The notes beneath the pieces are model-generated. The model had not been told where the DNA came from. It saw only the letters and a list, made by a program, of their open reading frames with translations, and ran no database searches. The position numbers and the translations under genes were made by a program. A DNA stretch of 64,000 nucleotides from a virus: positions 25,306 to 89,305 of IMG/VR virus record IMGVR_UViG_3300025645_000048; one strand, given 5' to 3'. Positions 1 through 62,136 of the stretch are shown here, piece after piece. The number at the start of each line of letters is the position of its first letter. Within the stretch, counting starts at the first letter, position 1.

Positions 1-2
1 CT

Positions 3-530
3 AAAGAACTTGCTGCAATAAAACGAAGAGTGCTTAAAGGTAAAAATATTACATCATACTCTTCATTACCATCTATAGGAATGGAAGACGGTAAGTTAAA
101 GAACAATAGCAAGAGTGTTATTGGATTTGGGGATGATGGTAAGACTATGAAAACAGGAACTGAACTTATTGAACAAGATATAGGCGCTAGAATTAGTTGG
201 TCAAGTGATGAAACTTTAACTAATGGTATGGACAAAGTCTTAAAACTATACTTACCAAAATCATTACGAGCTGGTGCCAGAGCAACATTTGTAGACAACC
301 CAGATGGTGATGATTTAATTATAGAATATTATGATGCAAAAGGTCAACTGCAAACAATAGGAAAAGAAGTTAATACTGGAAATTTCTTTGTGGGTGGTGC
401 GCTAAAAGCAGCAGAAATAAATGATATTTTATATGATGCCTCTTTAGATATACTGAATCAAGAAAATGACAGAAGAAGAACAAGAAACAAAAGAGGAGTA
501 TCTAAAGAAGTAATAAAGTTCAATGGATAA
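3..530 (+). CDS. 5'-truncated hypothetical (probable virion/ejection) protein
   Basis: Frame is open from base 3, so the GTG at 30 is probably not the true start; overlaps the start of the giant gene. Confidence 0.7.
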   Translation, partial: KELAAIKRRVLKGKNITSYSSLPSIGMEDGKLKNNSKSVIGFGDDGKTMKTGTELIEQDIGARISWSSDETLTNGMDKVLKLYLPKSLRAGARATFVDNPDGDDLIIEYYDAKGQLQTIGKEVNTGNFFVGGALKAAEINDILYDASLDILNQENDRRRTRNKRGVSKEVIKFNG

Positions 531-3500
531 GTTTAAAGAACTATATCAATACCTCGTTGATAACGAGATGACTGACTTATCTGAAGAAGATTTTAAGGTT
601 AAATATGCTCAAGGAACAGATAATAACTCTATACTATTTACCTACCTTCAAGACAATGAATTAACTGATTTAGACCAACAAACATTTAATTCTAAATACT
701 TTCCACAACAAACACAAGTAGATGTTGATGTTGTTACTGATGAAGTAACAGATGTAAAAGATGGTCAAGAGGTTGATTCATCTACAATGGTAGAAGAAAC
801 TGTTGCTTATGATCCTAGAGAACAAGGTATGGATGACACAATATCCTACAACAACAATGCTACTGTTTTTGAAAAATCACTAGCATATGTTACTCCAGAT
901 TTAATTGATAGGGAAGAAGAAGAGGTGGTTAACAGAATGAATTATCATTTTGGCGACTATGGTTTTACTTTTGAAGAAGGGGGAGGTATGATGTCTGGCA
1001 TGGATGGAATGAGTGTTCGTGCAGAAAATGGTCAAACCATAAATGTAAACCTCGATCCAATATTTGGAGATTTATTCGGTGGTGAAACTCAAGAATCTAA
1101 CAAGTTACAGGATTTTTTAAAAAAGAATAAAAAAACTAACCCAGAGCTAGAGGCTTTTAATGCTGAGAATAATCGTAAAAGAAAAAAATACTTTAGCAAG
1201 AAGGCAGTTGATGAGGATTTAGATGATTTAAAAACTAAAGCTACTTCTATAAATAAACGAGCACAAGTTTATCAAACTGAAAAAACCAAGCATGAAGAGG
1301 CTATGGATGGTTTAATGATGGTGCCTTCACAAGAAAGAGGTGCTGAGTGGCAGTTAAAATACCAACAACAGTTAGCGGTTGGTAAAAGACTAAACGAACT
1401 TAAACAAACAGTATCTAACGAACTCAAGTCATATAGAACTATAGAAAAACAAGTTCATTCTGCTGTAGGAAACTACATGGAAATGAAATTAAATGATGGA
1501 AGTGGTCCTGGAACATTTTTAAAAGGTTTTTATAATAGTGTGGTGGGAAGAGGTATTTCTCAAATTTTTGCATATGGTGCTGATTTAGGAATAGACGGAT
1601 TATATGGTATAGGTCAAGCTATAAATGAGGATTTTTCTTTACGAAGTCTATCAGGTGTGACTGAAGAAGAGAAAAAAGAAAGGTATATAACTATTGCAAA
1701 AGATTTAGGTTATGATGTTCCTACTGATGTAATGGATAGTGATGAGTCTTATCAAAACTGGTTGAACAGCCTCAGTGAAGAAGATGAGATGGCACTAGAT
1801 GGTGATACTGATTTATTTACTTCACAATTAAATAAAGAAGGAAGAAAGGCATTAAAAGACTCTGGAAAAGAATTAAAAAACATTAATGGTAAGTTACAAT
1901 TATATAATCCTAAAGGTGGAATTTTAGGTAAAGGTGGGTATGAGGATGTTCCTGCAGACTATTTAGACAAAACCAAAAGAGACAAACTAGATAGATTAGT
2001 TTTGGATGCAGAAGTTAAGTCGGCAAAAAAACCTACTAAAGAGTTTATTAAAAAGAACTGGAATCAATTATTGTCTTTTGATGATGTTTCTGATGAAAAA
2101 ATTGCTGAAATGCGAGAAGACAGTATTATAGCCGAGGGTTTATTAGGCTTAGGTGAGTCATTACCGGCTATAGGGTTGTCATTAGCTTCAAGAGGTAAAA
2201 TAAAAGCAACTGGACAATTTGCTAATGTAAGAAACATAGCTGGAAGAATACTAGGGTTAGACTCTAAAGGTGGGGTAGCCCAAGTGTTAGCTTTTTCAGC
2301 TTTACAAGCTGAGGCAATGCAAGAGGAAATGGATGCTGATGAAGATTTTAAATATGTTACAGAAGGAGAAAGAAAATTAATTTTAGGCCCTACAGCATTA
2401 ACAGTAGCAGTATTAGAAAGATATGGTCTAAGAAATTTATTGCGTAATAAAACTATAATGACTGGTTTAATGAATCAAGTTACTAAGACTTTACCTCAAG
2501 GTGCATCTGCCGCACTATATAAATCTACATTAGAAAAAATAGTTAAAAGTAATATTGCCAAAGGAATATACACTAATAAAGGAGTAAAGTTTAGTACTTC
2601 TGTAGCAAAAGCAGCCTTAGCTGAAGCAGAAACAGGAGGCTTACAACAGATAGCAGAAATGGGCTACAAGGATATATGGAATGATATGAACGAAAAAGAC
2701 ATGTTCGATCAACCAGAAATGTGGTCTAAAGAGTTTTGGCAAGAAGCTAAACATGCTGCAATGGCCGAAGCAGTAGGTGGGTTTGTTATGGGTATACCAG
2801 GGGGTATAGTAAATGCCTATAAGGTTGGTGAAACTGATAATATATCTGATGCAACATTAGAGTTGTTTGATGCAATAAGAGGTGATAATATTACCATGAA
2901 AGCATACAAAGAACAATTAAATCTTCAAGTGGCTGATGGTACAAAAACACAAAAACAAGCTAATGAAGAGTTATTGCAATTTGAAACTTTATCTGGTGCG
3001 GCAAACACTATACCAGTTGATTTAGATATAACTGCTAGAAAAAAAGCATTAGGATTAATTTTTGAAAGACAAGGTCTTGAAGCAGAAATGGAAGGGATGG
3101 ATAAAGACCTAGGTTCTTACAAGAAAAAAGAAGCTAGAGTTGAAGAAATTAAAAATGAATTATCACAAATTGGAAGTGAACAAGCTGATGATTCTGCATC
3201 GCTAGAAAAGGAAAGTGAAAATATCCCTACATTTGTTTCTGAAGAAAAAATTACTAGAGAGGAATTAAATGAGCCTGATACTTTTACTCACAGAACAATG
3301 AGTAAAGATGCAATTACTAGTTGGGCTGATGGAGGTCAAGTGATTGGGAAAAAAGAAGATTTAGGAGATTTTGACTCTAGAGTACCCAATAACCCATTAG
3401 AAGCGGCATCAAAAAAAGAAGGCTTCAATAGGCAGTCTCCTAATTTCCAAAAAGGTGGTGTTTATTCTGGAAAATTAAAACCTGGAGAGTTTGTTGTTGT

Positions 3501-6500
3501 TGCTAAAGGAGAAAATAAATTTATACCTAGTGCAAGTTTTCAAAACAGAAAAACTTTTGAAAAAAGTGGTGGAATTTCAACTTTAAAACCAGATTCAAGA
3601 GATTTATCTAATTTTAATTTATATAAAGTAAATGAAAAAGGAGAGTTAGTAAAACAAAATTGGAACAATTATAAAACAAGTAAAAATGCCATTCAAAAGT
3701 CAAAAACAACGAGCATGGATGTACGCCAATCTTCCGGAGATGGCAAAACGATGGGAAAAGGAAACAAAGGGACCACTACCCAACAGAGCACCCAAGAAAA
3801 CCAAGATGCGTCTCAAACGAAATCGGAAGAGAAAGTAACTAAAGAAGAGCAAGAAGATATTGACGCCTTTTTTGGTCAAGAGGTTGGGTTAGAGGTTGAA
3901 TCTATTTCTGACAACTTATCTATAAACCGTCAACAAAAAGATGGTAGTAAGGTTAAAGACACTAAATTAAGCACACAAATCATAAGAAGAGCCAAGTTAG
4001 CTGCAAAAGCTATAAAAAAAATTGCTCCAAATGTAAAAATGGTGCTACACCAAACAACAGAAGAGTTTGAAAAGTTTGCACCTAAAGGAAATGGATATTA
4101 TAATCCAAACACTAAAGTAATTCATATAAACTTAGCAACTGCAAAAAATAAAACTGTAGCTCATGAGGTATTTCATGCAGTGTTTTTAGAAAAAATTGCC
4201 GGCGGTGACAAAGGTGCAATAGCAGCAGCCGACAGATTAATTAAATCTGTAAGAAAAAGTTTGCCTAATGATTCTATGTTAGCAAAACGAATGGATGCAT
4301 TTGCTAATAAATATAAAGACAGTGCGTTCCAAAATGAGGAAAGAGTAGCTGAGTTGTTTTCTTTAATGGCTACAGAGTACAAATCTTTAACTAAACCTGC
4401 TAAAAACAGAGTAGTTGAGTTTATTAAAAGTGTAGCAAAAAAATTAGGTATAAAAATTTCTAATGATTTTACAAGTTCTGATGAAGCTGTTATTGATTTT
4501 TTAAATACATTTTCTAAAAAAGTACAGTCTGGTGAAGAAGTAGTTGAGTCTGACTTAACTGCATTAGATGAAATAAATGAGCAACTAGCTCAAGATGGTA
4601 CTGCACCAATTGGTAATCCAACTGAAATAAATAAACCTCAAGAGGGGAGGCAGTCTAAAATAAAGTTTAATGATAGTTATCCTTTATCCTTAGTTACTCC
4701 AGAAAATAAAATAGATATAAATAGTCTTATTGATAATATTTCTAACAAAAAACAAAAAGTTTGGTTTTGGGTTGCAGATCAGTTAGGGCTAGGTAATGTA
4801 GATGGAATTGAAATGGATGCTGGACCAAGTTTTTCTTTACAACCAGAAAACTTAAAGAAAAAAACTATATGGGCAAGTGGTTTAGATAATTCAAAATTAA
4901 GCAAAAACATAGATGCAGCCGATTATATTTTTATTATAAGTGGATCACCTGAAACTAGTAAATTGTTTAATAAAAAAGTATTTGATAGATATATTAAAGA
5001 TTTAGGTGATTATGCAAAATTTAAAAAAGATGCATTAGCAACTAATCCAACAAAAGCAATAAGAGATAGTCTTGAAGAATTTGATAGTTGGTCGGCAATG
5101 AGAAAAAGTCCAAAAAGAAAAAACTTCTTAATAGCTCTAAACGAACAAAGCAGAAAGCCTAACACTAAATTTCATGCATTAATTAATAATTTAGGAGGAT
5201 TTGTAAGTGCTCAATCTTTAAGAGATGGGTTTTACAGAGATAATAATTTTGCTCAAAATGATATAATGATGGTGTTAAAGCCAACAGGATTAGGAGGTAA
5301 ATCAAATCATTCTACTTATTCTACAGACATCTTAGGGGATGTTGTGGGAGTTCCAGATGCAAAAATAAATGCTAGAGAAATAGTTCCAGAAAATATAAAA
5401 AAGAAAATAGAGGGAACAAATATTTCAGTGCAAACTTCTAGTATAGCTCCTTATGGCGGTTCTACTCAAACAGCAGTAAAAACCATCACTAAACCTCAAG
5501 AGGGGAGGCAACAAAGAGATACACTCGCTGAGATAAATGTGTTTTATAATATGAATAACAGTGGCTTTTTTAGTCCACAAGTCGATACATATAGATTACA
5601 AAAAGAATTAGATGCTTTAAACCAAGGTTATAAACTAAGACAGGCACCATACAATCAGTATGGTCAAGGTGGTGGATACTCTATATATGACTCTAGAGGT
5701 AAAAGAGTAAGACCACCTAAAGACAGTGAGTATAGACAGGGTAGGCAACAGAAGATGGATAAAGAAAACGACCTTCTAAAAATTATTGTTATAGGTAGGG
5801 AACAAGGTGGATTTAAAGATGGTGCTATTAAAGATTATTTAAAAAGAAGAAAAAAAGAAGTAAATGGCAAGTTAGTTCCTGCATATTCTGCAGCAGAAAT
5901 AAACAATGCTATGGAGGTGGTTGAAGGATACAATGAAGATAAATATTTATTTAAATCATTTCCTAAAAGTTTTAACAACATAGAGGGAGGTTTTTTAGCT
6001 GGTCTAAAATTGTTAAAAAAGGTAAATGCATACTACAAAAGACTTGTAACAAATAACGAAAAAAAGAAATCTGTAGCTGTTAAAGGCACACCATTAACTG
6101 AAGAACAGATAAGAGAAAAAGTAATAGAGTATTTTGTTAATTTAAAAGAATATCAAAATGAAGGTGCTCAAGGTAATAGGTTGACTGCACAACAAATGGC
6201 TATGGAAAAAGATTTGTTAGAATTACTTTTACCCGATCCATTAAAAGCTAACCCACAAAGAATTAGAGCTATAAACAAAAGAATTAGAGAAATAAAGTTT
6301 GATGAAAAGAATTTAAAAAAGGTACAAATAGCATTAAGAAATTATATAAGATCGGTTCTTCCAAGAGATTTATATACTCCAGGTGAAATTGATAACTTAA
6401 TTAATAAAGTAAATAGAATTAATAAAGAAAATTTTGACTCTGTTAAAAATGAGGTGTTTAAAATTGTCACTACTAAAACAAATAAATCTTTACAGGAATC

Positions 6501-9500
6501 TATATTTGATATATTGAACAAGAAGTATCAAACAATTCAGTCTGGTAGACTAAAAGGAGTAACAGTTGACAACGAAACTAGAAAAAAAATAGAAAGAATT
6601 AATGCAATGGTAGTAAACCCTAAAGCTACCGCTGATGAGATTATGAAAGCTAATGAAAAGCTTTTAAAAGAATACAACAAAATAACTCAAGAAGAGGTTG
6701 ATATAGATAAATCTTTTGTGTTTTCTAAAAACACAAGTGAAAAAAGGACACAAGTTAAAAGCAGTTTAGATGAAGATGCATTGAGTAGATTGGCAGAAAT
6801 TACTACAGCTATGCAAATAAACAATTCATTTTTAGCAGAAATGAACGATCCAAATAAAACCACTTTATTGTCTAATGTATTAAATTCTCTAAATCAAATG
6901 CAAGAGACTGGTAGAGCAAACTTAGAATATGTTCTTCTTAATGATGCAATTACTTACAGAGAAAATGAAAGGAAAGTTTTTAGAGAGATGACTGGCATAA
7001 ATTTAGATGCAAAACAATCTTTAATAGACCAAGGAGTTTCTGAAAATGAAATAACAGAGGGAATGATTAATGTAGAGTTTAATAGACTTAAGCAAGATGT
7101 ATCAATCGACGCTAAAAGAAAGGGTGGATTAAGACCTCCTACAGTCAGAAAAAGATTTCAAAACATAATTAATAAAATGTTAAACAGTTTTGATCGTAAT
7201 GTATTTGCATCAGCTGAAGATTTAACAGGCTTAATAGATAGAATTGTAACTCAACCAGGTGAATTATTTGAAGGTGACACACAGACGATTGTACAAAAAG
7301 CAGTAAGAGAAGCTACTAGAATGTACAAGGCTAGGATGATGGGACAGAAGGATATTTTTGAAAATAAAATGACTGAATTGTTTGGCAAAAGATGGTTAAA
7401 AAACAACGCTAAAAACTCTCAACAGACTGAGATTATAATAATTAGTCAAGCTAAAAATGACCAACTAGTAAAAGAAAAGGAAAAGGTATTGGCTGATAAA
7501 TCTTTAACAAGTGGTGAAAAAACAGCAAAAGTAAAAGGATTAGATGAGGCAATAGATACTAATACTATTTATATAAGTCAAAATCAGTTGATGTATTACT
7601 ACTCTCAAATGCAAGATCCTTCGCTTCAAGAAAGTTTTATAAATACTTTTGCACCTACTGGTAATTATAAAAATGAATTTGAGTCTAGAATAAGAAAAGA
7701 GTTAGAGGATAAGTTAGATCCTAGATTAAAAGAATTTTCTAGTTGGATGATAAATGACTACTACCCATCTTTATATAATCACTACAACGAAACATATAAA
7801 CAGATTTACCGAACAGACATGCCTTGGAATCAATTTTATGCAGGTAGAGTTTATAGAAAAAATGCCAATGATTCTGAAGGTTTAGATTTATTAGCTGACA
7901 GTAATAATTCTTGGATGACAAATGTAGGTGCTGCAAGTTCTAAAGTTAGATTACAGAACTCTAATCCAATCTCAATGGTTGATGGTATGGATGCTCTAAT
8001 TAATTATACTAAAGATATGGAGTACTTTGCTGCTTATGCAGTTCCAGTAAGAAATATTAATAAAATATTTACATCTCCTGCTATTAAAGAAACAATTCAA
8101 GAAAAGTATGGTAAAGATGTGTGGCAATATATTAATGATTCGATAGAAAAAATTGCAAACAAGGGTGTGCAGAATCAAGGTGAAACTAAGGTTATAAATT
8201 TATTTAACAATACATTTTTATTATCTCGCCTTGGATTAAACCCAACTCTTACTTTAAAACAGTTGACTTCATTTGTAACCTATGGAAATGAAATAGGTTA
8301 TATGAACTGGGTAAAAAACAGTGCAATAAGTTTAGCGAGTATAAAAACAAACTTCAGAGAAGTTATGGACAACTCTATAATTTTACAAGATAGATATGGT
8401 AAACCTATAACTAGAGCTGTAGAAAATTATTCTGACAGTAAATTTGAAGAACTTAATGCTAGAGATTTTTCTAATTTTGGTTTAGGTAAACAAAATTTAG
8501 ATAAAATATCAAAAGTATTAATGTTTACAACTATGACTGGTGATAAGGGTGCAATCTTAATTGGTGGTATACCTAACTATGTGTATTATAAAAACCAGTA
8601 TAAAAAGAAAAACCCTAATGCATCTAAACAAGAAGTAATTGATTATGCAATAAGAAAGTTTGAACAAGATACATTAAGAACTCAACAGTCTTATGACCTA
8701 CAAGACAAAGACTACTTTCAAAGCAAAGGCTCTATGGTTAGAGCATTCAATATGTTCTTGACTACACCAAAACAATACTTTAGAAAAGAAATTATTGCAA
8801 TGAGAAACATATATAGACTCGCATCGAGTGGAGGGTTTCTGTCTGCAAAAAACGCTAAATCAGGTAGAGGAACAATGTTCCAAAATTTACGAACACTAGG
8901 TGTTTATCATGTGGTTATGCCGGTATTCTTTCAATGGGTATCTTCTGGTTTTCCTGGATTAGCAAGAGGCTGGGATGATGAAGACACTGATGACATTGCT
9001 TTTGCAGCTATGCTTGGTAATTTAAATGCATTGTTTATATATGGTAAAATAGCTGAGACAATAGTAGATGCTGCTGCGGGTAAGCCATGGGTAAGCAAAC
9101 CATCAACAATTCCAGTATTAGGGCAAATAGCTTTACTGGGTGATTTATATGTGAGAATGAATAATGCTACATCCCCTGAAAAACAAAAAGAACACTTTAA
9201 TAAATTAATGGCTGAGTTAGTGGCTACTACTGGTATACCAGCTCCACAGCTAAAAAGGTTTTATGAAAATTGGAGTCAATTAGATAAAAGTAAAAGTTTT
9301 GGAGACTTTGTTTTAAAACTATTTAACTTCTCTCAATATGCTCAAAAGAAAAAGAAAAAAGGTGGAGGATTGACTAAAGCAGAACAGAAAAAATATTTTC
9401 CAGATTTATTTCCAGATGATTTAGAAGGAACAAATGAGGCAAGTGAAATAAAAAAAGAACAAAGAAGATTAAGACAAGAACTTTTAGATGATATGTTTTA

Positions 9501-9501
9501 A
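523..9501 (+). CDS. Giant 2992-aa polyvalent/DNA-ejection-type protein with zincin metallopeptidase motif
   Basis: VAHEVFH (HExxH) at 4162-4176 followed by EERVAE; helical, modular, GRQ-type linkers; last gene of a + strand block. Confidence 0.75.
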   Translation: MDKFKELYQYLVDNEMTDLSEEDFKVKYAQGTDNNSILFTYLQDNELTDLDQQTFNSKYFPQQTQVDVDVVTDEVTDVKDGQEVDSSTMVEETVAYDPREQGMDDTISYNNNATVFEKSLAYVTPDLIDREEEEVVNRMNYHFGDYGFTFEEGGGMMSGMDGMSVRAENGQTINVNLDPIFGDLFGGETQESNKLQDFLKKNKKTNPELEAFNAENNRKRKKYFSKKAVDEDLDDLKTKATSINKRAQVYQTEKTKHEEAMDGLMMVPSQERGAEWQLKYQQQLAVGKRLNELKQTVSNELKSYRTIEKQVHSAVGNYMEMKLNDGSGPGTFLKGFYNSVVGRGISQIFAYGADLGIDGLYGIGQAINEDFSLRSLSGVTEEEKKERYITIAKDLGYDVPTDVMDSDESYQNWLNSLSEEDEMALDGDTDLFTSQLNKEGRKALKDSGKELKNINGKLQLYNPKGGILGKGGYEDVPADYLDKTKRDKLDRLVLDAEVKSAKKPTKEFIKKNWNQLLSFDDVSDEKIAEMREDSIIAEGLLGLGESLPAIGLSLASRGKIKATGQFANVRNIAGRILGLDSKGGVAQVLAFSALQAEAMQEEMDADEDFKYVTEGERKLILGPTALTVAVLERYGLRNLLRNKTIMTGLMNQVTKTLPQGASAALYKSTLEKIVKSNIAKGIYTNKGVKFSTSVAKAALAEAETGGLQQIAEMGYKDIWNDMNEKDMFDQPEMWSKEFWQEAKHAAMAEAVGGFVMGIPGGIVNAYKVGETDNISDATLELFDAIRGDNITMKAYKEQLNLQVADGTKTQKQANEELLQFETLSGAANTIPVDLDITARKKALGLIFERQGLEAEMEGMDKDLGSYKKKEARVEEIKNELSQIGSEQADDSASLEKESENIPTFVSEEKITREELNEPDTFTHRTMSKDAITSWADGGQVIGKKEDLGDFDSRVPNNPLEAASKKEGFNRQSPNFQKGGVYSGKLKPGEFVVVAKGENKFIPSASFQNRKTFEKSGGISTLKPDSRDLSNFNLYKVNEKGELVKQNWNNYKTSKNAIQKSKTTSMDVRQSSGDGKTMGKGNKGTTTQQSTQENQDASQTKSEEKVTKEEQEDIDAFFGQEVGLEVESISDNLSINRQQKDGSKVKDTKLSTQIIRRAKLAAKAIKKIAPNVKMVLHQTTEEFEKFAPKGNGYYNPNTKVIHINLATAKNKTVAHEVFHAVFLEKIAGGDKGAIAAADRLIKSVRKSLPNDSMLAKRMDAFANKYKDSAFQNEERVAELFSLMATEYKSLTKPAKNRVVEFIKSVAKKLGIKISNDFTSSDEAVIDFLNTFSKKVQSGEEVVESDLTALDEINEQLAQDGTAPIGNPTEINKPQEGRQSKIKFNDSYPLSLVTPENKIDINSLIDNISNKKQKVWFWVADQLGLGNVDGIEMDAGPSFSLQPENLKKKTIWASGLDNSKLSKNIDAADYIFIISGSPETSKLFNKKVFDRYIKDLGDYAKFKKDALATNPTKAIRDSLEEFDSWSAMRKSPKRKNFLIALNEQSRKPNTKFHALINNLGGFVSAQSLRDGFYRDNNFAQNDIMMVLKPTGLGGKSNHSTYSTDILGDVVGVPDAKINAREIVPENIKKKIEGTNISVQTSSIAPYGGSTQTAVKTITKPQEGRQQRDTLAEINVFYNMNNSGFFSPQVDTYRLQKELDALNQGYKLRQAPYNQYGQGGGYSIYDSRGKRVRPPKDSEYRQGRQQKMDKENDLLKIIVIGREQGGFKDGAIKDYLKRRKKEVNGKLVPAYSAAEINNAMEVVEGYNEDKYLFKSFPKSFNNIEGGFLAGLKLLKKVNAYYKRLVTNNEKKKSVAVKGTPLTEEQIREKVIEYFVNLKEYQNEGAQGNRLTAQQMAMEKDLLELLLPDPLKANPQRIRAINKRIREIKFDEKNLKKVQIALRNYIRSVLPRDLYTPGEIDNLINKVNRINKENFDSVKNEVFKIVTTKTNKSLQESIFDILNKKYQTIQSGRLKGVTVDNETRKKIERINAMVVNPKATADEIMKANEKLLKEYNKITQEEVDIDKSFVFSKNTSEKRTQVKSSLDEDALSRLAEITTAMQINNSFLAEMNDPNKTTLLSNVLNSLNQMQETGRANLEYVLLNDAITYRENERKVFREMTGINLDAKQSLIDQGVSENEITEGMINVEFNRLKQDVSIDAKRKGGLRPPTVRKRFQNIINKMLNSFDRNVFASAEDLTGLIDRIVTQPGELFEGDTQTIVQKAVREATRMYKARMMGQKDIFENKMTELFGKRWLKNNAKNSQQTEIIIISQAKNDQLVKEKEKVLADKSLTSGEKTAKVKGLDEAIDTNTIYISQNQLMYYYSQMQDPSLQESFINTFAPTGNYKNEFESRIRKELEDKLDPRLKEFSSWMINDYYPSLYNHYNETYKQIYRTDMPWNQFYAGRVYRKNANDSEGLDLLADSNNSWMTNVGAASSKVRLQNSNPISMVDGMDALINYTKDMEYFAAYAVPVRNINKIFTSPAIKETIQEKYGKDVWQYINDSIEKIANKGVQNQGETKVINLFNNTFLLSRLGLNPTLTLKQLTSFVTYGNEIGYMNWVKNSAISLASIKTNFREVMDNSIILQDRYGKPITRAVENYSDSKFEELNARDFSNFGLGKQNLDKISKVLMFTTMTGDKGAILIGGIPNYVYYKNQYKKKNPNASKQEVIDYAIRKFEQDTLRTQQSYDLQDKDYFQSKGSMVRAFNMFLTTPKQYFRKEIIAMRNIYRLASSGGFLSAKNAKSGRGTMFQNLRTLGVYHVVMPVFFQWVSSGFPGLARGWDDEDTDDIAFAAMLGNLNALFIYGKIAETIVDAAAGKPWVSKPSTIPVLGQIALLGDLYVRMNNATSPEKQKEHFNKLMAELVATTGIPAPQLKRFYENWSQLDKSKSFGDFVLKLFNFSQYAQKKKKKGGGLTKAEQKKYFPDLFPDDLEGTNEASEIKKEQRRLRQELLDDMF
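3686..3838 (+). CDS. Overprinted 50-aa basic protein (MPFKSQKQRAWMYANLPEMAKRWEKET...) in +1 frame of the giant gene
   Basis: A-rich leader, ATG...TAA; resembles a small phage protein family beginning MPFKS..QR.(W/F)M.A..P..AKRW. Confidence 0.7.
   Translation: MPFKSQKQRAWMYANLPEMAKRWEKETKGPLPNRAPKKTKMRLKRNRKRK
4632..5510 (+). repeat. Perfect 21-bp direct repeat TAAACCTCAAGAGGGGAGGCA (4632-4652, 5490-5510)
   Basis: Read directly; 858 bp apart (286 codons); encodes KPQEGRQ. Confidence 0.95.
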
Positions 9502-9693
9502 TTAAACTTCATCAGACAATGACTGAATTAAATCAGCCATAAGTTTACAAACTTTTTGCGCCTTGGCTTTTGCTTCGTTGTGATCTCTCTCCATTAAGTC
9601 TTCATATAATTCGGTGATGAGGTTGTGTGAGTTGTTTGTCACAAAGTTAATATGCTTAATCGCACTCACATCGTCTTGAGATATACCGTTCAT
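9502..9693 (-). CDS. Hypothetical protein
   Basis: 63-aa ORF tail-to-tail with the giant gene; TATATTTG promoter-like motif upstream on minus strand (9714-9721). Confidence 0.7.
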   Translation of the reverse strand: MNGISQDDVSAIKHINFVTNNSHNLITELYEDLMERDHNEAKAKAQKVCKLMADLIQSLSDEV

Positions 9694-9739
9694 TTTTTTT
9701 TACCCATCTATACCAAATATAAAAAAATTTTAGTAAGAT

Positions 9740-9955
9740 TCAAATGTCAGTACCTAATTCTTGGTTTATTTTAGCGATATGAATTTCTAGTCTACTAATC
9801 TCTTTAAGCAATCCTAACATGTTATGTGCAGATATAGGGATGCGTCCACCATTAGGATTATAGGTCCCAGGATAACAACAATTAATAATTAAAAATTGAT
9901 ATAAATTTCTTTTATATGATTTGAAATATTCTAAATCTTCGACTTTGTATATCAT
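9740..9955 (-). CDS. Hypothetical protein
   Basis: Overlap-coupled with upstream ORF. Confidence 0.6.
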   Translation of the reverse strand: MIYKVEDLEYFKSYKRNLYQFLIINCCYPGTYNPNGGRIPISAHNMLGLLKEISRLEIHIAKINQELGTDI

Positions 9956-10275
9956 TTTCTAGGTTTTATGTATGAATTTAAACATATCAAATCTAAATAT
10001 TCATTCATATTTATTAATGATAAGTCTGTAAGTGTTAAATACTCTCCATGTGTTTTCATCACTTCAACAGCAAAAGTAATAGGTTCATTATAATAATGTA
10101 CTACACCACCTAACACATAAGTAGTAAAATTATTAGGAGAAATATCTCTTAGATTATCTTGTATAAACAAAGCTATTTTTATAGCGATAGGTTCTTCTAT
10201 CTCTTCTAGTGAGGTTACAAAGTTATCTTCTACTTCATAGCCTCTATCCTTTATGTACCTCGGTTCTAAATCCAT
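9952..10275 (-). CDS. Hypothetical protein
   Basis: 107-aa ORF in operon. Confidence 0.65.
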   Translation of the reverse strand: MDLEPRYIKDRGYEVEDNFVTSLEEIEEPIAIKIALFIQDNLRDISPNNFTTYVLGGVVHYYNEPITFAVEVMKTHGEYLTLTDLSLINMNEYLDLICLNSYIKPRK

Positions 10276-10483
10276 ATTCTTCTAATTCTTTTAATCTATA
10301 CTTCTGTAAAACTGACACCTTACCTTTCGGAGTTTTAACTTCCGAAAACAATACTTCACAGTTCGGAGGTATTGCAAGTAAATCAGGTATCCCATTTTTA
10401 TTAGTCTTAATTAATTTAAGCACATAATATCCTTCAGCCTCTAGTTCTTTTATTCTTTTGCTTTGTATTTGTTGCTCTGTCAT
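10244..10483 (-). CDS. VRR-NUC domain nuclease
   Basis: E..IQ, GIPDLL, EVKTPKGKVS..Q motifs; near SNF2-type helicase. Confidence 0.85.
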   Translation of the reverse strand: MTEQQIQSKRIKELEAEGYYVLKLIKTNKNGIPDLLAIPPNCEVLFSEVKTPKGKVSVLQKYRLKELEEYGFRTEVHKG

Positions 10484-10655
10484 TTTTATAATCTAAATAA
10501 AAGCCTATAGCTACAATCACATTCATTCCTATTGAAGATACTAACTCAATTAAGTCATGAAAACTATGAATTGATAAATGTATGTGCCCTACAATCCAAA
10601 AAGGTATTGCTAAGTTCTGGCTTATCCAAATAAGAGTAAACTTAATAAACCTCAT
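10434..10655 (-). CDS. Small membrane protein
   Basis: Two hydrophobic segments. Confidence 0.6.
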   Translation of the reverse strand: MRFIKFTLIWISQNLAIPFWIVGHIHLSIHSFHDLIELVSSIGMNVIVAIGFYLDYKNDRATNTKQKNKRTRG

Positions 10656-10656
10656 A

Positions 10657-11904
10657 TTACAAATTTAGTAAATCCTTTTTGAAATGATTAAGGGTGTAAT
10701 CTTTCTTCTTTATAACACTCTTGTATATGTCATCCTCAATACCACCCTCAGAAAATACCCAGTATATTTTATTATACAACCTATCTTTTGTGGTCATTCT
10801 GTCTCTTGATTGCCAGTAACTTGTAGCACTAAAGTCTATATTGTAATATACCAAGGCTTGTGCATTTTTTAAACTTATACCCTCTCTTCCTGAAACTATT
10901 TGTAGTGCAATACTTTTATTAGTAGTGTTAAACTCTTCTAGTTCTGTACACAAACCTTTACGATATACTTTTTTTAAAGCATTTAACTCTTCTTTAAACT
11001 TATAAAATATAGCAATCTTTTTACTTCTAAATTGTTTTCTGATAAATTCTGCCTTAGATAAATCTATAACCATAGACTCTCCACTTTCAAATTTAACTGT
11101 ACCAGAATACAGTTGATGTAATTTTGACATAAGCTTTACTGCTGTGTCTGCCAATATTACATTCTCCGATCCTTCAACAACCCTATCTTTGGTAAGCCTT
11201 CTTACTAATGATTTTATCACACTAGTAAGTGGAACATGTAAAACTTCTTCATCAGTGTTAACTTTAAACCCAGCTTCTTTCTGAGTATATGCAATTGTAT
11301 ATGGTTTCATATCATCGAGTATTGATTGTAACCCATGACTCCAGTCATTTATAGTCATGGCTCCTATTTTTTTTTGTTTAACTTGTACATATTGTTTAGC
11401 AAACTTGTAAAAACTTTTATATTGATTAAAAGGATTATTTCTAATAGCATAAACCTGGTGGTACATTTGTGAGTAAGATTCTGGTGTTGGTGTACCAGAT
11501 AAAAGAATTACATATGGATTATGTTTTAATATAAACTCTTTAACTGTCTTGGCTCTAAGGCTAGGTTTTGGAAATGCACCCATCGAATGTGCCTCATCAC
11601 AAACTATTAAGTCCCACTTTGTCTCATGAGACACTTTATGTAGGCTTTCGTAATTTATTATAGTAATATTATAGGAAGGATTAAGCATATCATAATCTCC
11701 TTGTATACTGGAGATTGCTTTTTTCTTTGTAATAAATAAGAGGTTATGAACTGGAAGAGCAAGACTCATAGCCAAACTTGTCAAGGTTTTACCAGTCCTA
11801 ACCTCCATAGCAAGATACAAAAATCCATGTTTTTTTAAAACCTCTGTACCTTTTTCTACGATGTCAGATTGATATTGTCTTAATTTCATATTATGTCTTT
11901 GCAT
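10657..11904 (-). CDS. SF2 (SNF2-like) DEAH helicase
   Basis: LRQYQ, RTGKT, DEAH, LSGTP, GREGISL, Q..DR motifs. Confidence 0.9.
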   Translation of the reverse strand: MQRHNMKLRQYQSDIVEKGTEVLKKHGFLYLAMEVRTGKTLTSLAMSLALPVHNLLFITKKKAISSIQGDYDMLNPSYNITIINYESLHKVSHETKWDLIVCDEAHSMGAFPKPSLRAKTVKEFILKHNPYVILLSGTPTPESYSQMYHQVYAIRNNPFNQYKSFYKFAKQYVQVKQKKIGAMTINDWSHGLQSILDDMKPYTIAYTQKEAGFKVNTDEEVLHVPLTSVIKSLVRRLTKDRVVEGSENVILADTAVKLMSKLHQLYSGTVKFESGESMVIDLSKAEFIRKQFRSKKIAIFYKFKEELNALKKVYRKGLCTELEEFNTTNKSIALQIVSGREGISLKNAQALVYYNIDFSATSYWQSRDRMTTKDRLYNKIYWVFSEGGIEDDIYKSVIKKKDYTLNHFKKDLLNL

Positions 11905-13076
11905 TTATTAACCACTGCTTGAACAACATCTACAGTCACTGCATTCCCACACATCTTATATCTTTGAGTGTTGCTTACCTTTTTAGTCACCCCATCATAT
12001 ATACCATACTCAGTCCAGTTATCAGGAAATCCTTGTAGTCTTTCACACTCTATAGGTGTCAGTCTTCTTATAGATTCATTTTCTATTATGCCATTGGGTT
12101 CAGAGGACCTTAAAGTAAATGCATCCTCACCATCAGATTTAACTGCATTACCAAATTTATCTGAATTGCCTAGTTGTGTTGGCACAACTATACTATCTAA
12201 TGGACTTGTTGTTACTGCATTAGCCACATTATCTTTTCTTGTTTCTAAATCTTTACCATTATCTCTTGTTCTCAATGCACCAGATAAAACTAAAGGAGGC
12301 ATGGTGCTAATATCTTTTTCACTGTGTCTTCTTGCAGATAGACAAGGGCTATCACCCTCAGTTCTTATTCGTAGTCCTTCATCATTTCTGTAGTCTGCAG
12401 CTCTTACTATCTTAGGATCTTTATAGTCTCTTGACAACAAAGCTGGTGCAGTATCTTTAAAACCAAACTCTCTTTCAGAAAAGTTACTTACCTGGGCTAC
12501 TCCTTTTTGTATTCCTTGAGTCTTGCTTGAGCTGATTTCGATAGGAAAAACTCCTTTCCAATCTCTTGGGGGGTTTGCAGAATATCCGACAAGGTAGATT
12601 CTCTCTCTGTTTTGGGGTAGAAACCACGATGTATTACACAATTGCCATTCAAGTCTATAACCCCCAATGTTGGTAAAGGCTTGGAGGATTGCCGCAAAAT
12701 CTCTGCCATCGTTTGAGCTGAATGTTCCTTTAACATTTTCCCAGATAAAAATTCCTGGTCGGCATTCATCAATGAGTCTAATCGCTTCAAGGATAAGGCT
12801 CGATCTATCTCCTCCCATCCCTTTACGATTTCCAGCGACACTAAAGTCTTGGCAAGGGCTTCCAAAGGTGATAGCGTCAATTTTTGGTAACTGTGTTCCT
12901 CGAACATCTGTAACTGATCCGACATACTTACTATTTTTAAAATTATATTTATACACTGCAATGGCATGAGCATCAACTTCTGAAAAGAAAGTTTTAACTT
13001 TATAACCCGCTTTTTCAAAACCTTTGTGAAATCCACCAATTCCTGAAAAAAGGTCTAAAACAGTGATTTTCTTCAT
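11886..13076 (-). CDS. dcm: C5 cytosine DNA methyltransferase, possibly multispecific
   Basis: DLFSGIGG, GSPCQDFS, ENV, QNRERIY, RRLTPIECERLQGFPD, GNAV motifs. Confidence 0.95.
   Translation of the reverse strand: MKKITVLDLFSGIGGFHKGFEKAGYKVKTFFSEVDAHAIAVYKYNFKNSKYVGSVTDVRGTQLPKIDAITFGSPCQDFSVAGNRKGMGGDRSSLILEAIRLIDECRPGIFIWENVKGTFSSNDGRDFAAILQAFTNIGGYRLEWQLCNTSWFLPQNRERIYLVGYSANPPRDWKGVFPIEISSSKTQGIQKGVAQVSNFSEREFGFKDTAPALLSRDYKDPKIVRAADYRNDEGLRIRTEGDSPCLSARRHSEKDISTMPPLVLSGALRTRDNGKDLETRKDNVANAVTTSPLDSIVVPTQLGNSDKFGNAVKSDGEDAFTLRSSEPNGIIENESIRRLTPIECERLQGFPDNWTEYGIYDGVTKKVSNTQRYKMCGNAVTVDVVQAVVNKCKDII
12497..12925 (-). CDS. Alternative-frame nested ORF (MSDQLQMF..., 142 aa), like the M.EcoHK31I beta subunit
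   Basis: Same-strand frame open over 543 nt inside the methylase gene; ends TLSDILQ...EFFLS..A..RL. Confidence 0.65.
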   Translation of the reverse strand: MSDQLQMFEEHSYQKLTLSPLEALAKTLVSLEIVKGWEEIDRALSLKRLDSLMNADQEFLSGKMLKEHSAQTMAEILRQSSKPLPTLGVIDLNGNCVIHRGFYPKTERESTLSDILQTPQEIGKEFFLSKSAQARLKEYKKE

Positions 13077-24898: not shown

Positions 24899-26512
24899 AT
24901 GAGTGCACAAGGCTATATACCCAAAGACCTAACTTTTGATGAAGAAGGTCGTAAACAATTAATCCAAGGAATTACTGCAATATCTAAAGCTGTAAAAAGT
25001 ACGCTAGGCCCACGCGGTCAGACTGTACTCATTGAATCACCCGATCATGTTGGTGGAATCACAGTGACTAAGGATGGTGTGACTGTAGCCAAGTCTATAT
25101 TCCTAGACAACCCAATAGAAAACCTAGCCATACAAATGATGAAGGATGCAGCAACTAGAACTGCTAACTCTGCGGGTGATGGGACAACTACTGCAATAGT
25201 ATTAACTGAAGCGATAGTAAATGCAGGACAAGAACTATTAAAAGAAAACCATAACATCACCGAGGTGATTAAAGCAATCAACAAGCATTGTGATAAAATA
25301 ATTAGTATACTTGAAAAAGATGCCAAGAAGATTACTCCTGAAACTCTACTAGATGTTGCAACAATATCTGCCAACAACGACAAAGAGATAGGCCAGATAA
25401 TATCTGATGCCTATAAAAAAGTTGGTGCCAATGGTATAGTTACTGTAGAAAAGTCACAGAACCACGAGACCTATGCCGAGGTGACTAATGGTATAAAAGT
25501 AGATCGAGGATACTCCTCACCTATGTTTTTGAACAATCATCGTAAAGACGAGTGTGTGCTTGAAGATGTCTTGGTCTTAGTGTGTGACATAACAATTGAC
25601 AATATTCTGCAAATAGAGAATGTACTCAAACCAATCATACAACAAAACAAGAAACTACTAATCATCGCACCATGTGCTGACAATGTGGTCAACACTCTTG
25701 CGGCCAATGTGGTTCGTAATAATTTAAAAGTATGTACTGTTCTGCCTCCACAGTTTGGCTACAAAAGTCACGAGCTGATGCAAGATATAGCATTCGCGGT
25801 CGGTGCAAAAATATTCTCAGAACAAACTGGTGACGACTTAAGTCTTATAAACATGAACGACCTTGGTCATGTAGATAAAATAATAGTTGGTAAAGACTCC
25901 AGTGTGTTAATCAAGGACGCAGACATAAGCGAGGCAACACAAAACAGAATAGAAGAGCTGAAGGAACAACAACAAAATATGACAATTAAAAGCGATAAAG
26001 ACTTTATAAACGAGAGAGTGGCAAGTCTAGCTGGTGCCATTGGTTGTATATATGTCGGAGCTAATAGCGACGTGGAGCAAAAAGAAAAATTTGACCGAGT
26101 CGATGACTCGGTGTGTGCAGTTCGTAGCGCCTTGCAAGAAGGCATTATTCCCGGCGGAGGACTGGCACTATTTCATTGTGCTAGGTTTTTAAAAGAATAT
26201 ATTAAGTCATACAAGCCATTTGAGAACGAACCCAACATACAAGTAGCTGGTGAGATATTAGCCCAAGCAATACAAGTGCCATTAAAACAAATAATTATTA
26301 ATTCAGGTCAAGATGTGACTGAAATAATTAGTAAATTTCAACACATGGGAGGTAATATAGGATACGATGTTAAGAATGAAGATGTTGATGACATGTATGT
26401 GTTAGGTGTAATCGATCCACTTAAAGTAACTAAGAATGCACTGGTCAATGCAGTGTCTGTAGCCACAACAATACTATCAACTAATGCAATAATAACACAT
26501 AAACGAGCATGA
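24899..26512 (+). CDS. groEL: Phage chaperonin GroEL
   Basis: TLGPRG, TKDGVTVAK, AGDGTTTA, GIIPGGG, IDPLKV motifs; no GGM tail. Confidence 0.97.
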   Translation: MSAQGYIPKDLTFDEEGRKQLIQGITAISKAVKSTLGPRGQTVLIESPDHVGGITVTKDGVTVAKSIFLDNPIENLAIQMMKDAATRTANSAGDGTTTAIVLTEAIVNAGQELLKENHNITEVIKAINKHCDKIISILEKDAKKITPETLLDVATISANNDKEIGQIISDAYKKVGANGIVTVEKSQNHETYAEVTNGIKVDRGYSSPMFLNNHRKDECVLEDVLVLVCDITIDNILQIENVLKPIIQQNKKLLIIAPCADNVVNTLAANVVRNNLKVCTVLPPQFGYKSHELMQDIAFAVGAKIFSEQTGDDLSLINMNDLGHVDKIIVGKDSSVLIKDADISEATQNRIEELKEQQQNMTIKSDKDFINERVASLAGAIGCIYVGANSDVEQKEKFDRVDDSVCAVRSALQEGIIPGGGLALFHCARFLKEYIKSYKPFENEPNIQVAGEILAQAIQVPLKQIIINSGQDVTEIISKFQHMGGNIGYDVKNEDVDDMYVLGVIDPLKVTKNALVNAVSVATTILSTNAIITHKRA

Positions 26513-59671: not shown

Positions 59672-60100
59672 ATGATTGTATTAAAGACCATAGCTACTGC
59701 TCAAAACTTTAAAGTAATACCAAGAGTTTACGCTGATGAATTTACTTTATCTATAAGAGACGATAGTACAAACGTAAAACAAATATATGAAGTTACAGGA
59801 GCTATAACATCTGGAAATTATTTAACATTTTCACAAGCTTTTAGTCCTATACTTGTTGAAGGTCATTTTTACGATTTAGAATTATATACAGACCCAAATT
59901 TTTGGAATACTAATTATTTTCTTTGGGAATTATATAATGAATTTTGGAATGTAGATACAACAAACATTGTAGATATATATAAAGACAAGATTTTCTGTAC
60001 TGACCAAGAAATAGATCAAATGGATAATTTATACTATAACATAAATCAAGGTCAATACATTACAGATAATTCTTATAATAATGATTACATTGTAATATGA
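59672..60100 (+). CDS. Structural protein (head closure-like)
   Basis: After late promoter; coupled to portal. Confidence 0.55.
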   Translation: MIVLKTIATAQNFKVIPRVYADEFTLSIRDDSTNVKQIYEVTGAITSGNYLTFSQAFSPILVEGHFYDLELYTDPNFWNTNYFLWELYNEFWNVDTTNIVDIYKDKIFCTDQEIDQMDNLYYNINQGQYITDNSYNNDYIVI

Positions 60101-62136
60101 AAAATAGAAAAAGAAATAGTTTAGGTCAATTTGTAAAAGAATCTAAATCTGAAATTAGTTTTGTTAATTTAAGTACATATACAAGTCCAGACATTGTAGA
60201 AGTACCTAATCAAGAATGGGTAGGATATGGAGACGATAACAACTATTTTCAATTTTTAATTGACAGATACAATGGAAGTCCAACAAACAATGCTTGTATA
60301 AATGGTATATCACAACAAATTTATGGTAAAGGTTTAGGAGCTACAGATTCAAGTAGAAAACCAGATCAATACGCTGAAATGATTACACTTCTAAAAAAAG
60401 ATGTAGTTAGAAAAATATGTTATGACTTAAAACTTATGGGTCAAGCATCTTTACAAATTATATATTCTAAAGACAGAACAAGAATTGCACAAATAGAACA
60501 TATACCAGTTGAAACATTAAGAGCTGAAAAAGCAAACGAAGATGGCGATATTCCTGCTTACTATTATTTTAAAGACTGGGCTAAATTAAAACCAAGTGAC
60601 AAACCATTAAGAATACCAGCTTATGGAATGTCAAAAGAAAACATAGAAATATATTACATAAAGCCATACAAGTCTGGGTTTTACTATTACGCACCTGTAG
60701 ATTATCAAGGAGGCATACAATATGCAGAACTTGAGGAGGAGATAAGTAATTATCACTTAAACAACATAATGAATGGTTTAAGTCCTTCAATGTTAATCAA
60801 CTTTAACAACGGAACACCTAATCCACAAGAAAGAGAACTAATTGAGCAACGTATAGCACAAAAGTTTTCAGGTAGTTCTAATGCAGGTAAATTTATATTA
60901 AGTTTTAATGACAATAAAGATGCACAAGCAGAAATAACACCAGTTCAGTTATCAGATGCACATAACCAATACCAATTCTTATCAGACGAATCACAAAGCA
61001 AAGTATTAGTAGCTCATAGGGTAGTAAGTCCAATGCTATTAGGAATAAAAGACAATACAGGGCTTGGAAACAATGCAGATGAAATAAAGACTGCATCCTT
61101 GCTTATGGATAACACCGTTATAAGACCGTTTCAGGAACTTTTAATAGATTGCTTTGATACTATACTATCTTACAATAATATTGCTTTAAACCTATACTTT
61201 ATTACGTTACAGCCATTAGAATTTACAGATGTTGACAGAAGCGTACAAAGTGATGAAGATATAGAAGAAGAAACAGGAGTTAAAATGTCTGTTGAATTAA
61301 AAGAAGTAGATGGATATGAGGTTTACGAAACTAAAGAAGAAGCAGAAAGACAAGCTGAAAAAATGGGATGTTCTGGTCATCACGAACACAAAGAGGGAGA
61401 TAAGGTTTGGTATATGCCTTGTGAATCACACGATGAAATAGATTTAAAAAAACCTTGTCAAGCTGGATATGAGCAATATGGAATGAAAGTAAAAGGAGGA
61501 CGTTTAGTTCCTAATTGTATTCCTATTAAAATGTCAAGTGAACTTGGAGAAGTTATATTAGAAAACTTAAAAGGAGAAGTTATTAATGACGAATGGGAAC
61601 TTGTCGATGAATTACAAGAAGGTTCTGAAATTAGTGACGAAGATTGGGCTAACATTTGTATTGATGAAAAAAAGAGTTTATTTCAACAACTAAAAGACGA
61701 AATTACTGCAAAACCAGATGGCTTTAGTTATTTAGATTCTAAAAACTATAAGATTAGATATAAATATGCTGTAGGTTCTAAAAAACCAAGTAATTCAACA
61801 AGAGATTTTTGTGAAAATATGATGCGTTTATCAAGATCAGGTATTGTCTATAGATTAGAGGATATTGACAAAGCGTCAAGACAAGGTGTAAATAAACAAT
61901 TAGGTCATAAAGGTAAAGCGTATGACTTGTTTAAATTTAAAGGTGGAATTTATTGTAGACATAAATGGATGAGACAATTATATAGGTTAAAGAAAAACAC
62001 TAAACCTTCAAAGGATTTAAGCGACTATAAAAAAACAAGAACGATACCAAAAACATATATAAAGAATCCAAGAGGTACTAAACAATCAGAAATAGCACCT
62101 GTTAATATGCCTAATCAAGGAGCATACCCAAAATAG
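60097..62136 (+). CDS. Portal protein with long C-terminal extension
   Basis: G.DN.Y, SPT..A.I, G.G, NG..PS, G..NAG, AHRV.SP.L.G, IRPFQ; extension ends KGG.YCRH.W. Confidence 0.85.
   Translation: MKNRKRNSLGQFVKESKSEISFVNLSTYTSPDIVEVPNQEWVGYGDDNNYFQFLIDRYNGSPTNNACINGISQQIYGKGLGATDSSRKPDQYAEMITLLKKDVVRKICYDLKLMGQASLQIIYSKDRTRIAQIEHIPVETLRAEKANEDGDIPAYYYFKDWAKLKPSDKPLRIPAYGMSKENIEIYYIKPYKSGFYYYAPVDYQGGIQYAELEEEISNYHLNNIMNGLSPSMLINFNNGTPNPQERELIEQRIAQKFSGSSNAGKFILSFNDNKDAQAEITPVQLSDAHNQYQFLSDESQSKVLVAHRVVSPMLLGIKDNTGLGNNADEIKTASLLMDNTVIRPFQELLIDCFDTILSYNNIALNLYFITLQPLEFTDVDRSVQSDEDIEEETGVKMSVELKEVDGYEVYETKEEAERQAEKMGCSGHHEHKEGDKVWYMPCESHDEIDLKKPCQAGYEQYGMKVKGGRLVPNCIPIKMSSELGEVILENLKGEVINDEWELVDELQEGSEISDEDWANICIDEKKSLFQQLKDEITAKPDGFSYLDSKNYKIRYKYAVGSKKPSNSTRDFCENMMRLSRSGIVYRLEDIDKASRQGVNKQLGHKGKAYDLFKFKGGIYCRHKWMRQLYRLKKNTKPSKDLSDYKKTRTIPKTYIKNPRGTKQSEIAPVNMPNQGAYPK

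Follow-up and report, generated by a model that had tools for sequence, protein, structure and literature searches.

A gene for a small basic protein probably nested in the +1 frame of a giant phage virion-protein gene

Introduction

The stretch of viral DNA analysed here, referred to as the window, comprises 64,000 nucleotides and corresponds to positions 25,306 to 89,305 of the IMG/VR record IMGVR_UViG_3300025645_000048. Within it lies a giant open reading frame (ORF) of 2992 amino acids, and wholly inside this ORF, in the +1 frame, a short ORF at 3686-3838 could encode a basic peptide of 50 amino acids. It is very likely that the short ORF is a genuine coding gene nested in a giant virion-protein gene, with both frames of the shared DNA in use. 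The evidence that carries this conclusion is the large family of homologues to which the peptide belongs, the recurrence of the same nested arrangement in other phages, and the imprint of selection on the two overlapping frames.

The nested ORF and its host gene

The features of the locus are as follows, all on the plus strand.

523-9501, plus strand: host gene, a giant ORF of 2992 amino acids that closes the plus-strand structural operon.
3645-3685, plus strand: A-rich, weakly folding leader, presumed from base composition and folding energy to be an internal translation-initiation region.
3685-3843, plus strand: host-frame reading of the overlap, giant-protein residues 1055-1107, a polar low-complexity linker.
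3686-3838, plus strand: nested gene for a 50-amino-acid basic protein, frame +1 to the giant ORF, with ATG at 3686 and TAA at 3836-3838.
3686-3784, plus strand: conserved N-terminal module of the peptide, residues 1-33 (alignment A1, AlphaFold).
3785-3835, plus strand: variable tail rich in lysine and arginine (11 of 17 residues), without predicted structure.
3889-4539, plus strand: zincin-like folded domain of the giant protein behind the linker, with confidence values of 72-86 and the motif HEVFH at 4162-4176.

The short ORF was first picked out by a model that saw the letters alone (the sequence-only reading), and the coordinates, frame and peptide letters that it gave for an ATG-opened ORF of 50 codons inside a gene of about 9 kilobases (kb) are all exact; the codon phase of the giant ORF at position 3685 places the small ORF in the +1 frame. 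Two further claims of that reading, that the host frame becomes a disordered linker across the overlap and that the DNA is locally richer in C and G, also hold. The overlap, whose host-frame reading includes NAIQKSKTT, contains 13% hydrophobic residues, compared with 37% for the entire giant protein, and in an AlphaFold model of giant-protein residues 905-1405 the predicted local distance difference test (pLDDT) score is 30-37 across the overlap and 72-86 in the next domain. The nested ORF has a G and C fraction (GC) of 0.444; that of the giant gene is 0.321, and that of the 150 nucleotides upstream of the nested ORF is 0.220. The encoded peptide is strongly basic, with 18 lysines and arginines and 3 aspartates and glutamates. 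On length alone the nested ORF is unremarkable, being one of three same-strand alternative-frame ORFs of at least 40 amino acids within the giant gene; it is homology that gives it significance. The source record of 89,305 base pairs holds a single copy of the peptide gene.

A large phage protein family without a Pfam model

According to the sequence-only reading the peptide resembled a small phage protein usually seen as a standalone gene, a resemblance that tblastn and profile searches bear out by recovering a large family, often standalone. In tblastn searches of deposited phages, peptide residues 1 to 23-29 align with the starts of small ORFs elsewhere, among them gene 48 of Streptomyces phage FlowerPower, a separately annotated coding sequence (CDS) of 72 amino acids. 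For IMG/VR, tblastn bore out 209 candidate stretches out of 319, and a collection of 5.8 billion proteins contributed 63 called relatives of 40-87 amino acids, all unnamed. All 63 scored candidates reached E<=0.001, the best at 3.9e-20, a figure that is not an independent hit rate since every candidate shared words with the query. With a profile built from 43 members (alignment A1), the number of cluster representatives retrieved was 4288 for E<=1e-3 and 759 for the stricter E<=1e-10. Of the best 150 representatives, 128 carry the module from residue 1 onward and 71 exceed 100 amino acids in length. The peptide is therefore a member of a very large phage family, and one for which there is no Pfam model.

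Searches against annotated families returned little. Pfam gave no match at E<=1 for the peptide and none at E<=10 for 10 diverse members, except for DUF5661 on one fusion protein. The PHROG family phrog_1375, of unknown function, matched the window peptide weakly (E 0.02, 16.3 bits) and five longer family members at E 5e-5 to 2e-4, also with weak scores; it corresponds to the N-terminal module, but only weakly, and brings no annotation to transfer. Kinship with DUF3008 (PF11450) was not confirmed: Pfam gave no match, and the sole lead was an Atlas score of 0.85 for a cluster in which 15% bears that family. At the nucleotide level, blastn of window positions 2800-4800 found no match in the phage collection.

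The conserved module begins MPFKS, and M1, P2, S5, Q8 and P17 are invariant in alignment A1. AlphaFold predicts an N-terminal helical hairpin, formed by helices at residues 6-15 and 17-26 with pLDDT of 88-94 over the first 30 residues, and an unstructured tail. In short family members (n=47) the tail averages 33% lysine plus arginine and 8% aspartate plus glutamate. A fold search with the peptide model gave nothing below E 8.9 in the PDB, and the matches in BFVD were all small phage proteins without characterisation that belong to this family.

Recurrence of the nested arrangement

The peptide was located in every fetched locus by six-frame search, and the open frames surrounding it were then measured. 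Not counting the window and a contig nearly identical to it, there are 22 loci in which an ORF of 840-3796 amino acids encloses the whole gene, the lower end of this range, 840 amino acids, being an ORF cut by a contig end. The profile search added five nested loci with a divergent, two-cysteine form of the peptide, including the cultured Flavobacterium phage vB_FspP_elemoA_1-9A (MT497075), in which the nested ORF, for a product of 42 amino acids, occupies positions 3582-3710 of the record, inside an 11-kb CDS annotated as 'structural protein'. In all 27 of these loci the peptide is in the +1 frame relative to its host and starts with ATG, and the host flanks are 22-97% identical. Conservation of the +1 frame in related giant genes had been proposed as a check on dual coding, and it passes: the frame is intact, with its ATG, in each of the 27 other giant genes that hold the peptide. 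Locus L004 is excluded from the 27, and L033, which is the same contig as L004, from all counts. The high-GC 'mid' loci L037, L053 and L057-L060 were not counted as nested because both other frames there have ORFs covering the peptide.

The peptide also matched 68 deposited elemo records and 1 uncultured record by tblastn. Among the elemo matches listed, the giant CDS is the sole feature beneath the match, and the one feature table examined, that of elemoA, has no small CDS at the position of the nested ORF, in agreement with the earlier suggestion that gene callers miss such a gene. A nested copy in an uncultured member of the Caudoviricetes (MW202828.1, 9605-9724) lies in a giant gene named 'reticulocyte binding/rhoptry protein', which is probably a mis-transferred name. 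In elemoA (L113, MT497075), at about nucleotides 3160-3580, residues that form the junction before the gene in relatives recur some 140 codons upstream, accompanied by a weak 17-residue match to the start of the peptide (E 0.84); the pattern resembles a partial duplication, or else a gene inserted immediately behind an older copy of the start.

Selection on both frames

Among 23 unique nested copies, pairwise differences at positions 1, 2 and 3 of the peptide codons are 0.283, 0.195 and 0.426, and the residue difference is 0.323 in the peptide frame versus 0.549 in the host frame. Because peptide position 2 changes least, the least variable host position is the third (0.195), the reverse of normal coding. 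Within each of two sets of close relatives, the variable columns at peptide positions 1, 2 and 3 number 1, 2 and 15, and 1, 1 and 14, respectively.

Suppression of synonymous change in the host frame, the second check proposed by the sequence-only reading, was also found. At codons with an unchanged host residue, host-synonymous change occurs in 36 of 584 cases (6.2%) in the overlap and in 1267 of 4516 (28.1%) in the flanks, where the comparison covers 17 pairs of related giant genes, with flanks of 250 codons on either side, and consists of pairwise counts and not of a tree-based codon model. The suppression is 4.5-fold and has the same direction in 16 of the 17 pairs, the remaining pair being visibly misaligned.

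The host frame is free of stops in all 23 unique nested copies, compared with 0-25 stops in the same frame across 22 standalone copies. When peptide codons were redrawn synonymously from the codon usage of the host gene (5000 trials at each of 22 loci out of the 27), the host frame stayed open in 0-0.18% of trials at 21 loci and in 3.7% at one; for the window, none of the 5000 redrawn sequences stayed open, and the mean number of stops was 5.67. The GC fraction rises locally at the nested gene in 25 of the 27 loci, and avoidance of stops probably contributes to this rise. On these comparisons, constraint on amino acids acts in the peptide frame, and the host frame is constrained mainly to remain free of stops.

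Considered as a dual-coding pair, the locus has a start and a stop of its own in an alternative frame inside a longer ORF, as do 27 other loci; homologues of the nested frame exist as genes in their own right (28 loci classed as standalone and 63 called small proteins); and purifying selection on the nested frame occurs together with suppressed synonymous change in the enclosing one. The sequence-only reading had spoken of overprinting. The dual coding contained in that term stands, whereas the notion of a new gene laid over an old one probably does not, since the nested frame looks the older of the two. With the wider constraint on the peptide and a host frame that is mainly kept stop-free, the frame of the small gene is therefore probably older, and the giant ORF would have absorbed it and now reads through it, which is overprinting in reverse.

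Genomic addresses of the small gene

The small gene is found at several addresses. Standalone copies lie directly after the stop codon of the giant gene (L005, L011/L024, L027 and L040), directly after a portal gene (L037, L061 and L070, and also L038, where one small ORF intervenes), directly before TerL (L057, L053 and L106) or at other places; the portals preceding these copies belong to different PHROG families. Nested copies also occur outside giant genes. In the L072 group the peptide is nested in a gene of 403 amino acids behind the portal; the window genome has its own homologues of this gene and of the portal (33% and 50% identity), without the peptide. At L063-type loci (for example L063, 4718-5086) a conserved coiled-coil-like ORF of 122-144 amino acids overlaps the start of the peptide gene by 80 nucleotides, so that the first 27 or so peptide codons are shared in the same relative frame as in the giant hosts. 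Between these host types, no homology was found in the flanks of the nested copies.

The giant gene itself can be without the peptide. The giant proteins of L005 and L019 lack the part corresponding to window residues ~908/922-1086/1092, overlap included, and 16 of 29 giant-gene relatives carry the peptide, the other 13 having no copy anywhere in their records. The peptide gene is therefore no obligatory partner of the giant protein. Contigs from RNA-labelled metagenomes match the window from exactly position 3686 onward and diverge upstream, and thus these relatives share the nested gene and not its 5' flank. On this evidence the small gene is an accessory one whose address can change.

Alternative explanations

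The main alternative is that the gene is real and expressed, and is a hitch-hiking or mobile mini-cassette: stop-free in its -1 frame, it would form a harmless linker in almost any late ORF and would be no partner of the giant protein. The distribution just described favours this view, in that the gene is patchy among giant-gene relatives, occurs in the same frame in at least three unrelated host contexts (giant genes, the 403-amino-acid post-portal gene, and the 3' ends of the 122-144-amino-acid ORFs) whose flanks are not homologous, shows homology that begins exactly at the ATG, including in the metagenome contigs that end at 3686, and is missing together with the surrounding segment from the giant proteins of L005 and L019, and likewise from the post-portal gene of the window genome. 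A precedent in concept is the hidden, out-of-frame HNH endonuclease in a phage methylase, described in PMC11855218. However, a hairpin of 40-60 amino acids with a basic tail, and with no nuclease or recombinase, has no means of its own to move, and a function that serves the phage is indicated by strong purifying selection and by the module's use at the N-terminus of larger proteins. A purely hitch-hiking gene is thus considered improbable.

Less probable still is a relic, that is, a former standalone gene that was recently swallowed by gene fusion and is no longer translated. Standalone copies directly behind the giant gene in relatives make a history of fusion or relocation plausible, but a relic would not be expected to keep its ATG and intact frame in 27 of 27 nested copies despite flanks with identity down to 22%, nor to show substitutions that track the codon phase of the peptide and a conserved initiation context.

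A programmed frameshift out of the giant ORF, yielding a truncated N-terminal giant protein that ends in the basic peptide, is if anything slightly less credible than a relic. The run of A before the window ATG could in principle slip, but at 13 of 27 loci the peptide frame is closed by a stop no more than 5 codons upstream of the ATG, and in 2 the stop adjoins it; moreover, the upstream sequences have no slippery motif in common, and the family begins at its methionine both where the gene is standalone and in 128 of the best 150 representatives.

Least likely of all is that the host frame, or an element of the RNA or DNA, is what is conserved and the +1 ORF a mere by-product, for although the host-frame translations of the overlap are alike between loci, standalone copies carry 0-25 stops in that frame, host residues diverge more than those of the peptide (0.549 and 0.323), and the host third position is the least variable, at 0.195.

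Several observations nevertheless weigh against a genuine gene for a virion-associated protein. The peptide is without a Pfam model and its PHROG match (phrog_1375, E 0.02) is weak, the fold searches in the PDB and BFVD gave no functional analogue for it, and among 10 longer family members, 7 carry no domain that can be recognised. The L063 group sits in a non-structural context of replication and nucleotide metabolism, between genes for DNA polymerase or glycosyltransferase and for ribonucleotide reductase, and 3 of the 13 giant-gene relatives without a copy are complete genomes with terminal repeats. In addition, the loci are related to one another, so that pooled counts overstate the number of independent events.

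Start region and expression

Adenine makes up a fraction of 0.65 of positions -20 to -1 before the window ATG, against a gene mean of 0.40, with A at -3, -12 and -13, and the minimum free energy of the start region is -1.4 kcal/mol, against a mean of -5.1 kcal/mol. Across the 27 nested loci, A occupies position -2 in 25 loci, -3 in 20, -5 in 24 and -6 in 23; positions -11 to -13 hold it in 23-24 (-12 in 23, -13 in 23). In 21 loci the stretch from -30 to +20 lies at a median of the 4th percentile of its host gene for weakest folding. At all three loci with a GC fraction of at least 0.5, a Shine-Dalgarno-like GGGGAGG or AAGGAGA stands 7-8 nucleotides upstream, inside the giant ORF. Adenines at -3, -6, -12 and -13, together with low structure, are named in PMC6847099 as positive determinants of initiation in Flavobacterium johnsoniae, which does not use Shine-Dalgarno sequences.

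Contigs of four RNA-labelled runs cover parts of 3300-4300 and are uninformative on transcription, transcript ends and translation; DNA sequencing runs from several studies contain the stretch. The motif TAnnTTTG, the Bacteroidota -7 promoter consensus, was absent within 200 nucleotides upstream at 19 of 19 loci, a weak test that lends no support to an internal promoter. Given a leader that is either A-rich and weakly folded or Shine-Dalgarno-like, the low likelihood of frameshifting and the lack of a promoter-like motif, internal initiation on the late mRNA is suggested as the most likely route. Translation would then start independently at the peptide's own ATG on the giant gene's late mRNA, driven by the A-rich unstructured leader or, in three high-GC relatives, by the Shine-Dalgarno-like motif instead.

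Fusions of the module and a possible role

In some family members the N-terminal module heads larger proteins. It precedes an InPase domain (E 3.7e-45) and a glycine zipper in one, S-AdoMet lyase/DUF3293 in others (P0174 and P0214 are among the proteins with these two arrangements) and a weak P-loop match in another; it is fused to DUF5661 at L079 (5001-5363), and at L104 (5001-8459), on a contig of 195 kb, it stands on a protein of 1152 amino acids of no known family. In PMC5512222, polyvalent proteins of phages are predicted to be packaged in the capsid, and InPase, zincin peptidases and capsid packaging are themes of these proteins. A predicted complex of the peptide with the portal-like protein at 60097-62133 scored 0.00, which speaks neither for nor against binding.

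In the reading of a genuine nested gene, the sequences establish the ORF, its homology, its conservation, the signatures of selection and the start context, and from there translation of the peptide, its packaging, its DNA binding and any link to the giant protein are inferred. A tentative proposal, somewhat more apt to fail than to hold, is that the small basic protein is made together with virion proteins and is packaged or associated with DNA. Since the module also stands at the head of larger phage proteins whose domains are typical of polyvalent proteins, which are packaged and injected, the hairpin might be a leader or anchor common to them all, and the basic tail might bind DNA. The giant ORF would read through the same DNA as a polar linker, without confident structure, ahead of its zincin-like domain.

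A broader view, which is unlikely though not to be dismissed as readily as the alternatives above, is that of a 'frame-transparent' gene, whose -1 frame is kept stop-free for the benefit of late ORFs, which lives in unrelated genes, and whose hairpin is a general capsid leader for cargo. Its hosts would be the genes of giant virion proteins, the gene behind the portal and the ends of small ORFs, and the cargo, small and large, would be delivered with the DNA. If true, this would amount to a new rule of phage genome architecture and a new packaging signal common to thousands of protein clusters. Even a narrower role of the module as a virion-targeting or DNA-anchoring leader would, if real, explain how many phage accessory proteins are delivered.

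Comparison with known systems

In phage lambda, the small spanin gene Rz1 lies wholly inside the larger gene Rz in the +1 frame, and both products are made. The present arrangement is alike in its small gene, enclosed entirely and in the +1 frame by a larger one. The Rz1 product, however, is a lipoprotein that has a signal sequence and the cysteine of a lipobox, whereas the nested peptide has neither a cysteine nor a hydrophobic leader, its host is a virion gene and not a lysis gene, and the family is widespread as standalone genes; an embedded, Rz1-like spanin is ruled out by the missing cysteine and hydrophobic N-terminus. The overprinted genes of phiX174 are likewise a case of two coding frames in one stretch, and in classical overprinting the nested frame is the newcomer. 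Both frames would be coding here as well, but the wide family and the constraint belong to the nested frame, and low complexity to the enclosing one.

A further parallel is the ShiLan-type insertion in a phage methylase, which hides, out of frame, an HNH endonuclease (PMC11855218). Both inserts are read through as a tolerated stretch, hold a protein of their own in another frame, are unannotated and are patchy in distribution. In that case a homing nuclease explains mobility; here there is a basic hairpin protein of 50 amino acids and no enzyme. With proteins of the MuF/SPP1 gp7 type and with polyvalent proteins, as characterised in PMC5512222, the family shares an often portal-adjacent gene position and an N-terminal module on variable effector-type domains (InPase, DUF3293), and the predicted zincin-like domain of the giant host protein has counterparts in many polyvalent proteins. 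MuF is matched neither in sequence nor in fold, and the module has only about 33 residues, so that the likeness is one of role and not of membership. A full-text search of the available literature, the elemo phages included, found no description of this family or of its repeated same-frame nesting in giant virion genes.

Phage genes nested out of frame are known, but only as isolated cases. What sets the present gene apart is that it is kept across giant genes diverged almost beyond recognition, that its host genes can be unrelated to one another while the relative frame never differs, that its family comprises thousands of clusters with no Pfam model and only an unannotated PHROG, and that it lacks annotation beneath the giant CDS among the elemo records listed and in the feature table examined. 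Gene callers thus systematically lose a common phage protein, and the locus provides a case in which the enclosing ORF, rather than the nested one, would be the newcomer. Cultured phages carry the nested gene and make it accessible to experiment; since the T of the ATG is the third base of a host codon, the start codon can be mutated silently with respect to the host frame.

The giant host gene and the source record

The structural operon runs from TerL through the portal and virion structural PHROGs to the giant gene. The homologue of the giant gene in Flavobacterium phage elemoA bears the annotation 'structural protein', and from this, the position at the end of the operon and the zincin-like domain, the giant protein may be an ejection protein, as the sequence-only reading called it. 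In the predicted domain at 3889-4539, the two histidines and the glutamate of the HExxH motif are nearly invariant among 16 homologues (alignment A3). The best fold match is PPEP-2 (Z 7.5, root-mean-square deviation 2.8, 86 residues aligned), with other zincin folds at Z 5.3-6.3, including aminopeptidase N at 6.3 and collagenases at 5.5-6.2; these Z values are middling. A sequence search of the PDB with giant-protein residues 1106-1705 gave no match, and no Pfam model, MPTase-PolyVal included, matches the domain at E<=1.

The source record contains two portal-like genes and terminates inside a gene. One portal, matching Pfam Phage_portal, is at window positions 60097-62136, near protease-like and structural genes at 54-59 kb; the second, phrog_6547, adjoins TerL at the start of the record (L115, own record 1-12700, 4321-9002). 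The pair could belong to one phage with two sets of head genes, or could reflect a chimeric assembly. It is the phrog_6547 portal that is related to those of the portal-adjacent contexts of the peptide.

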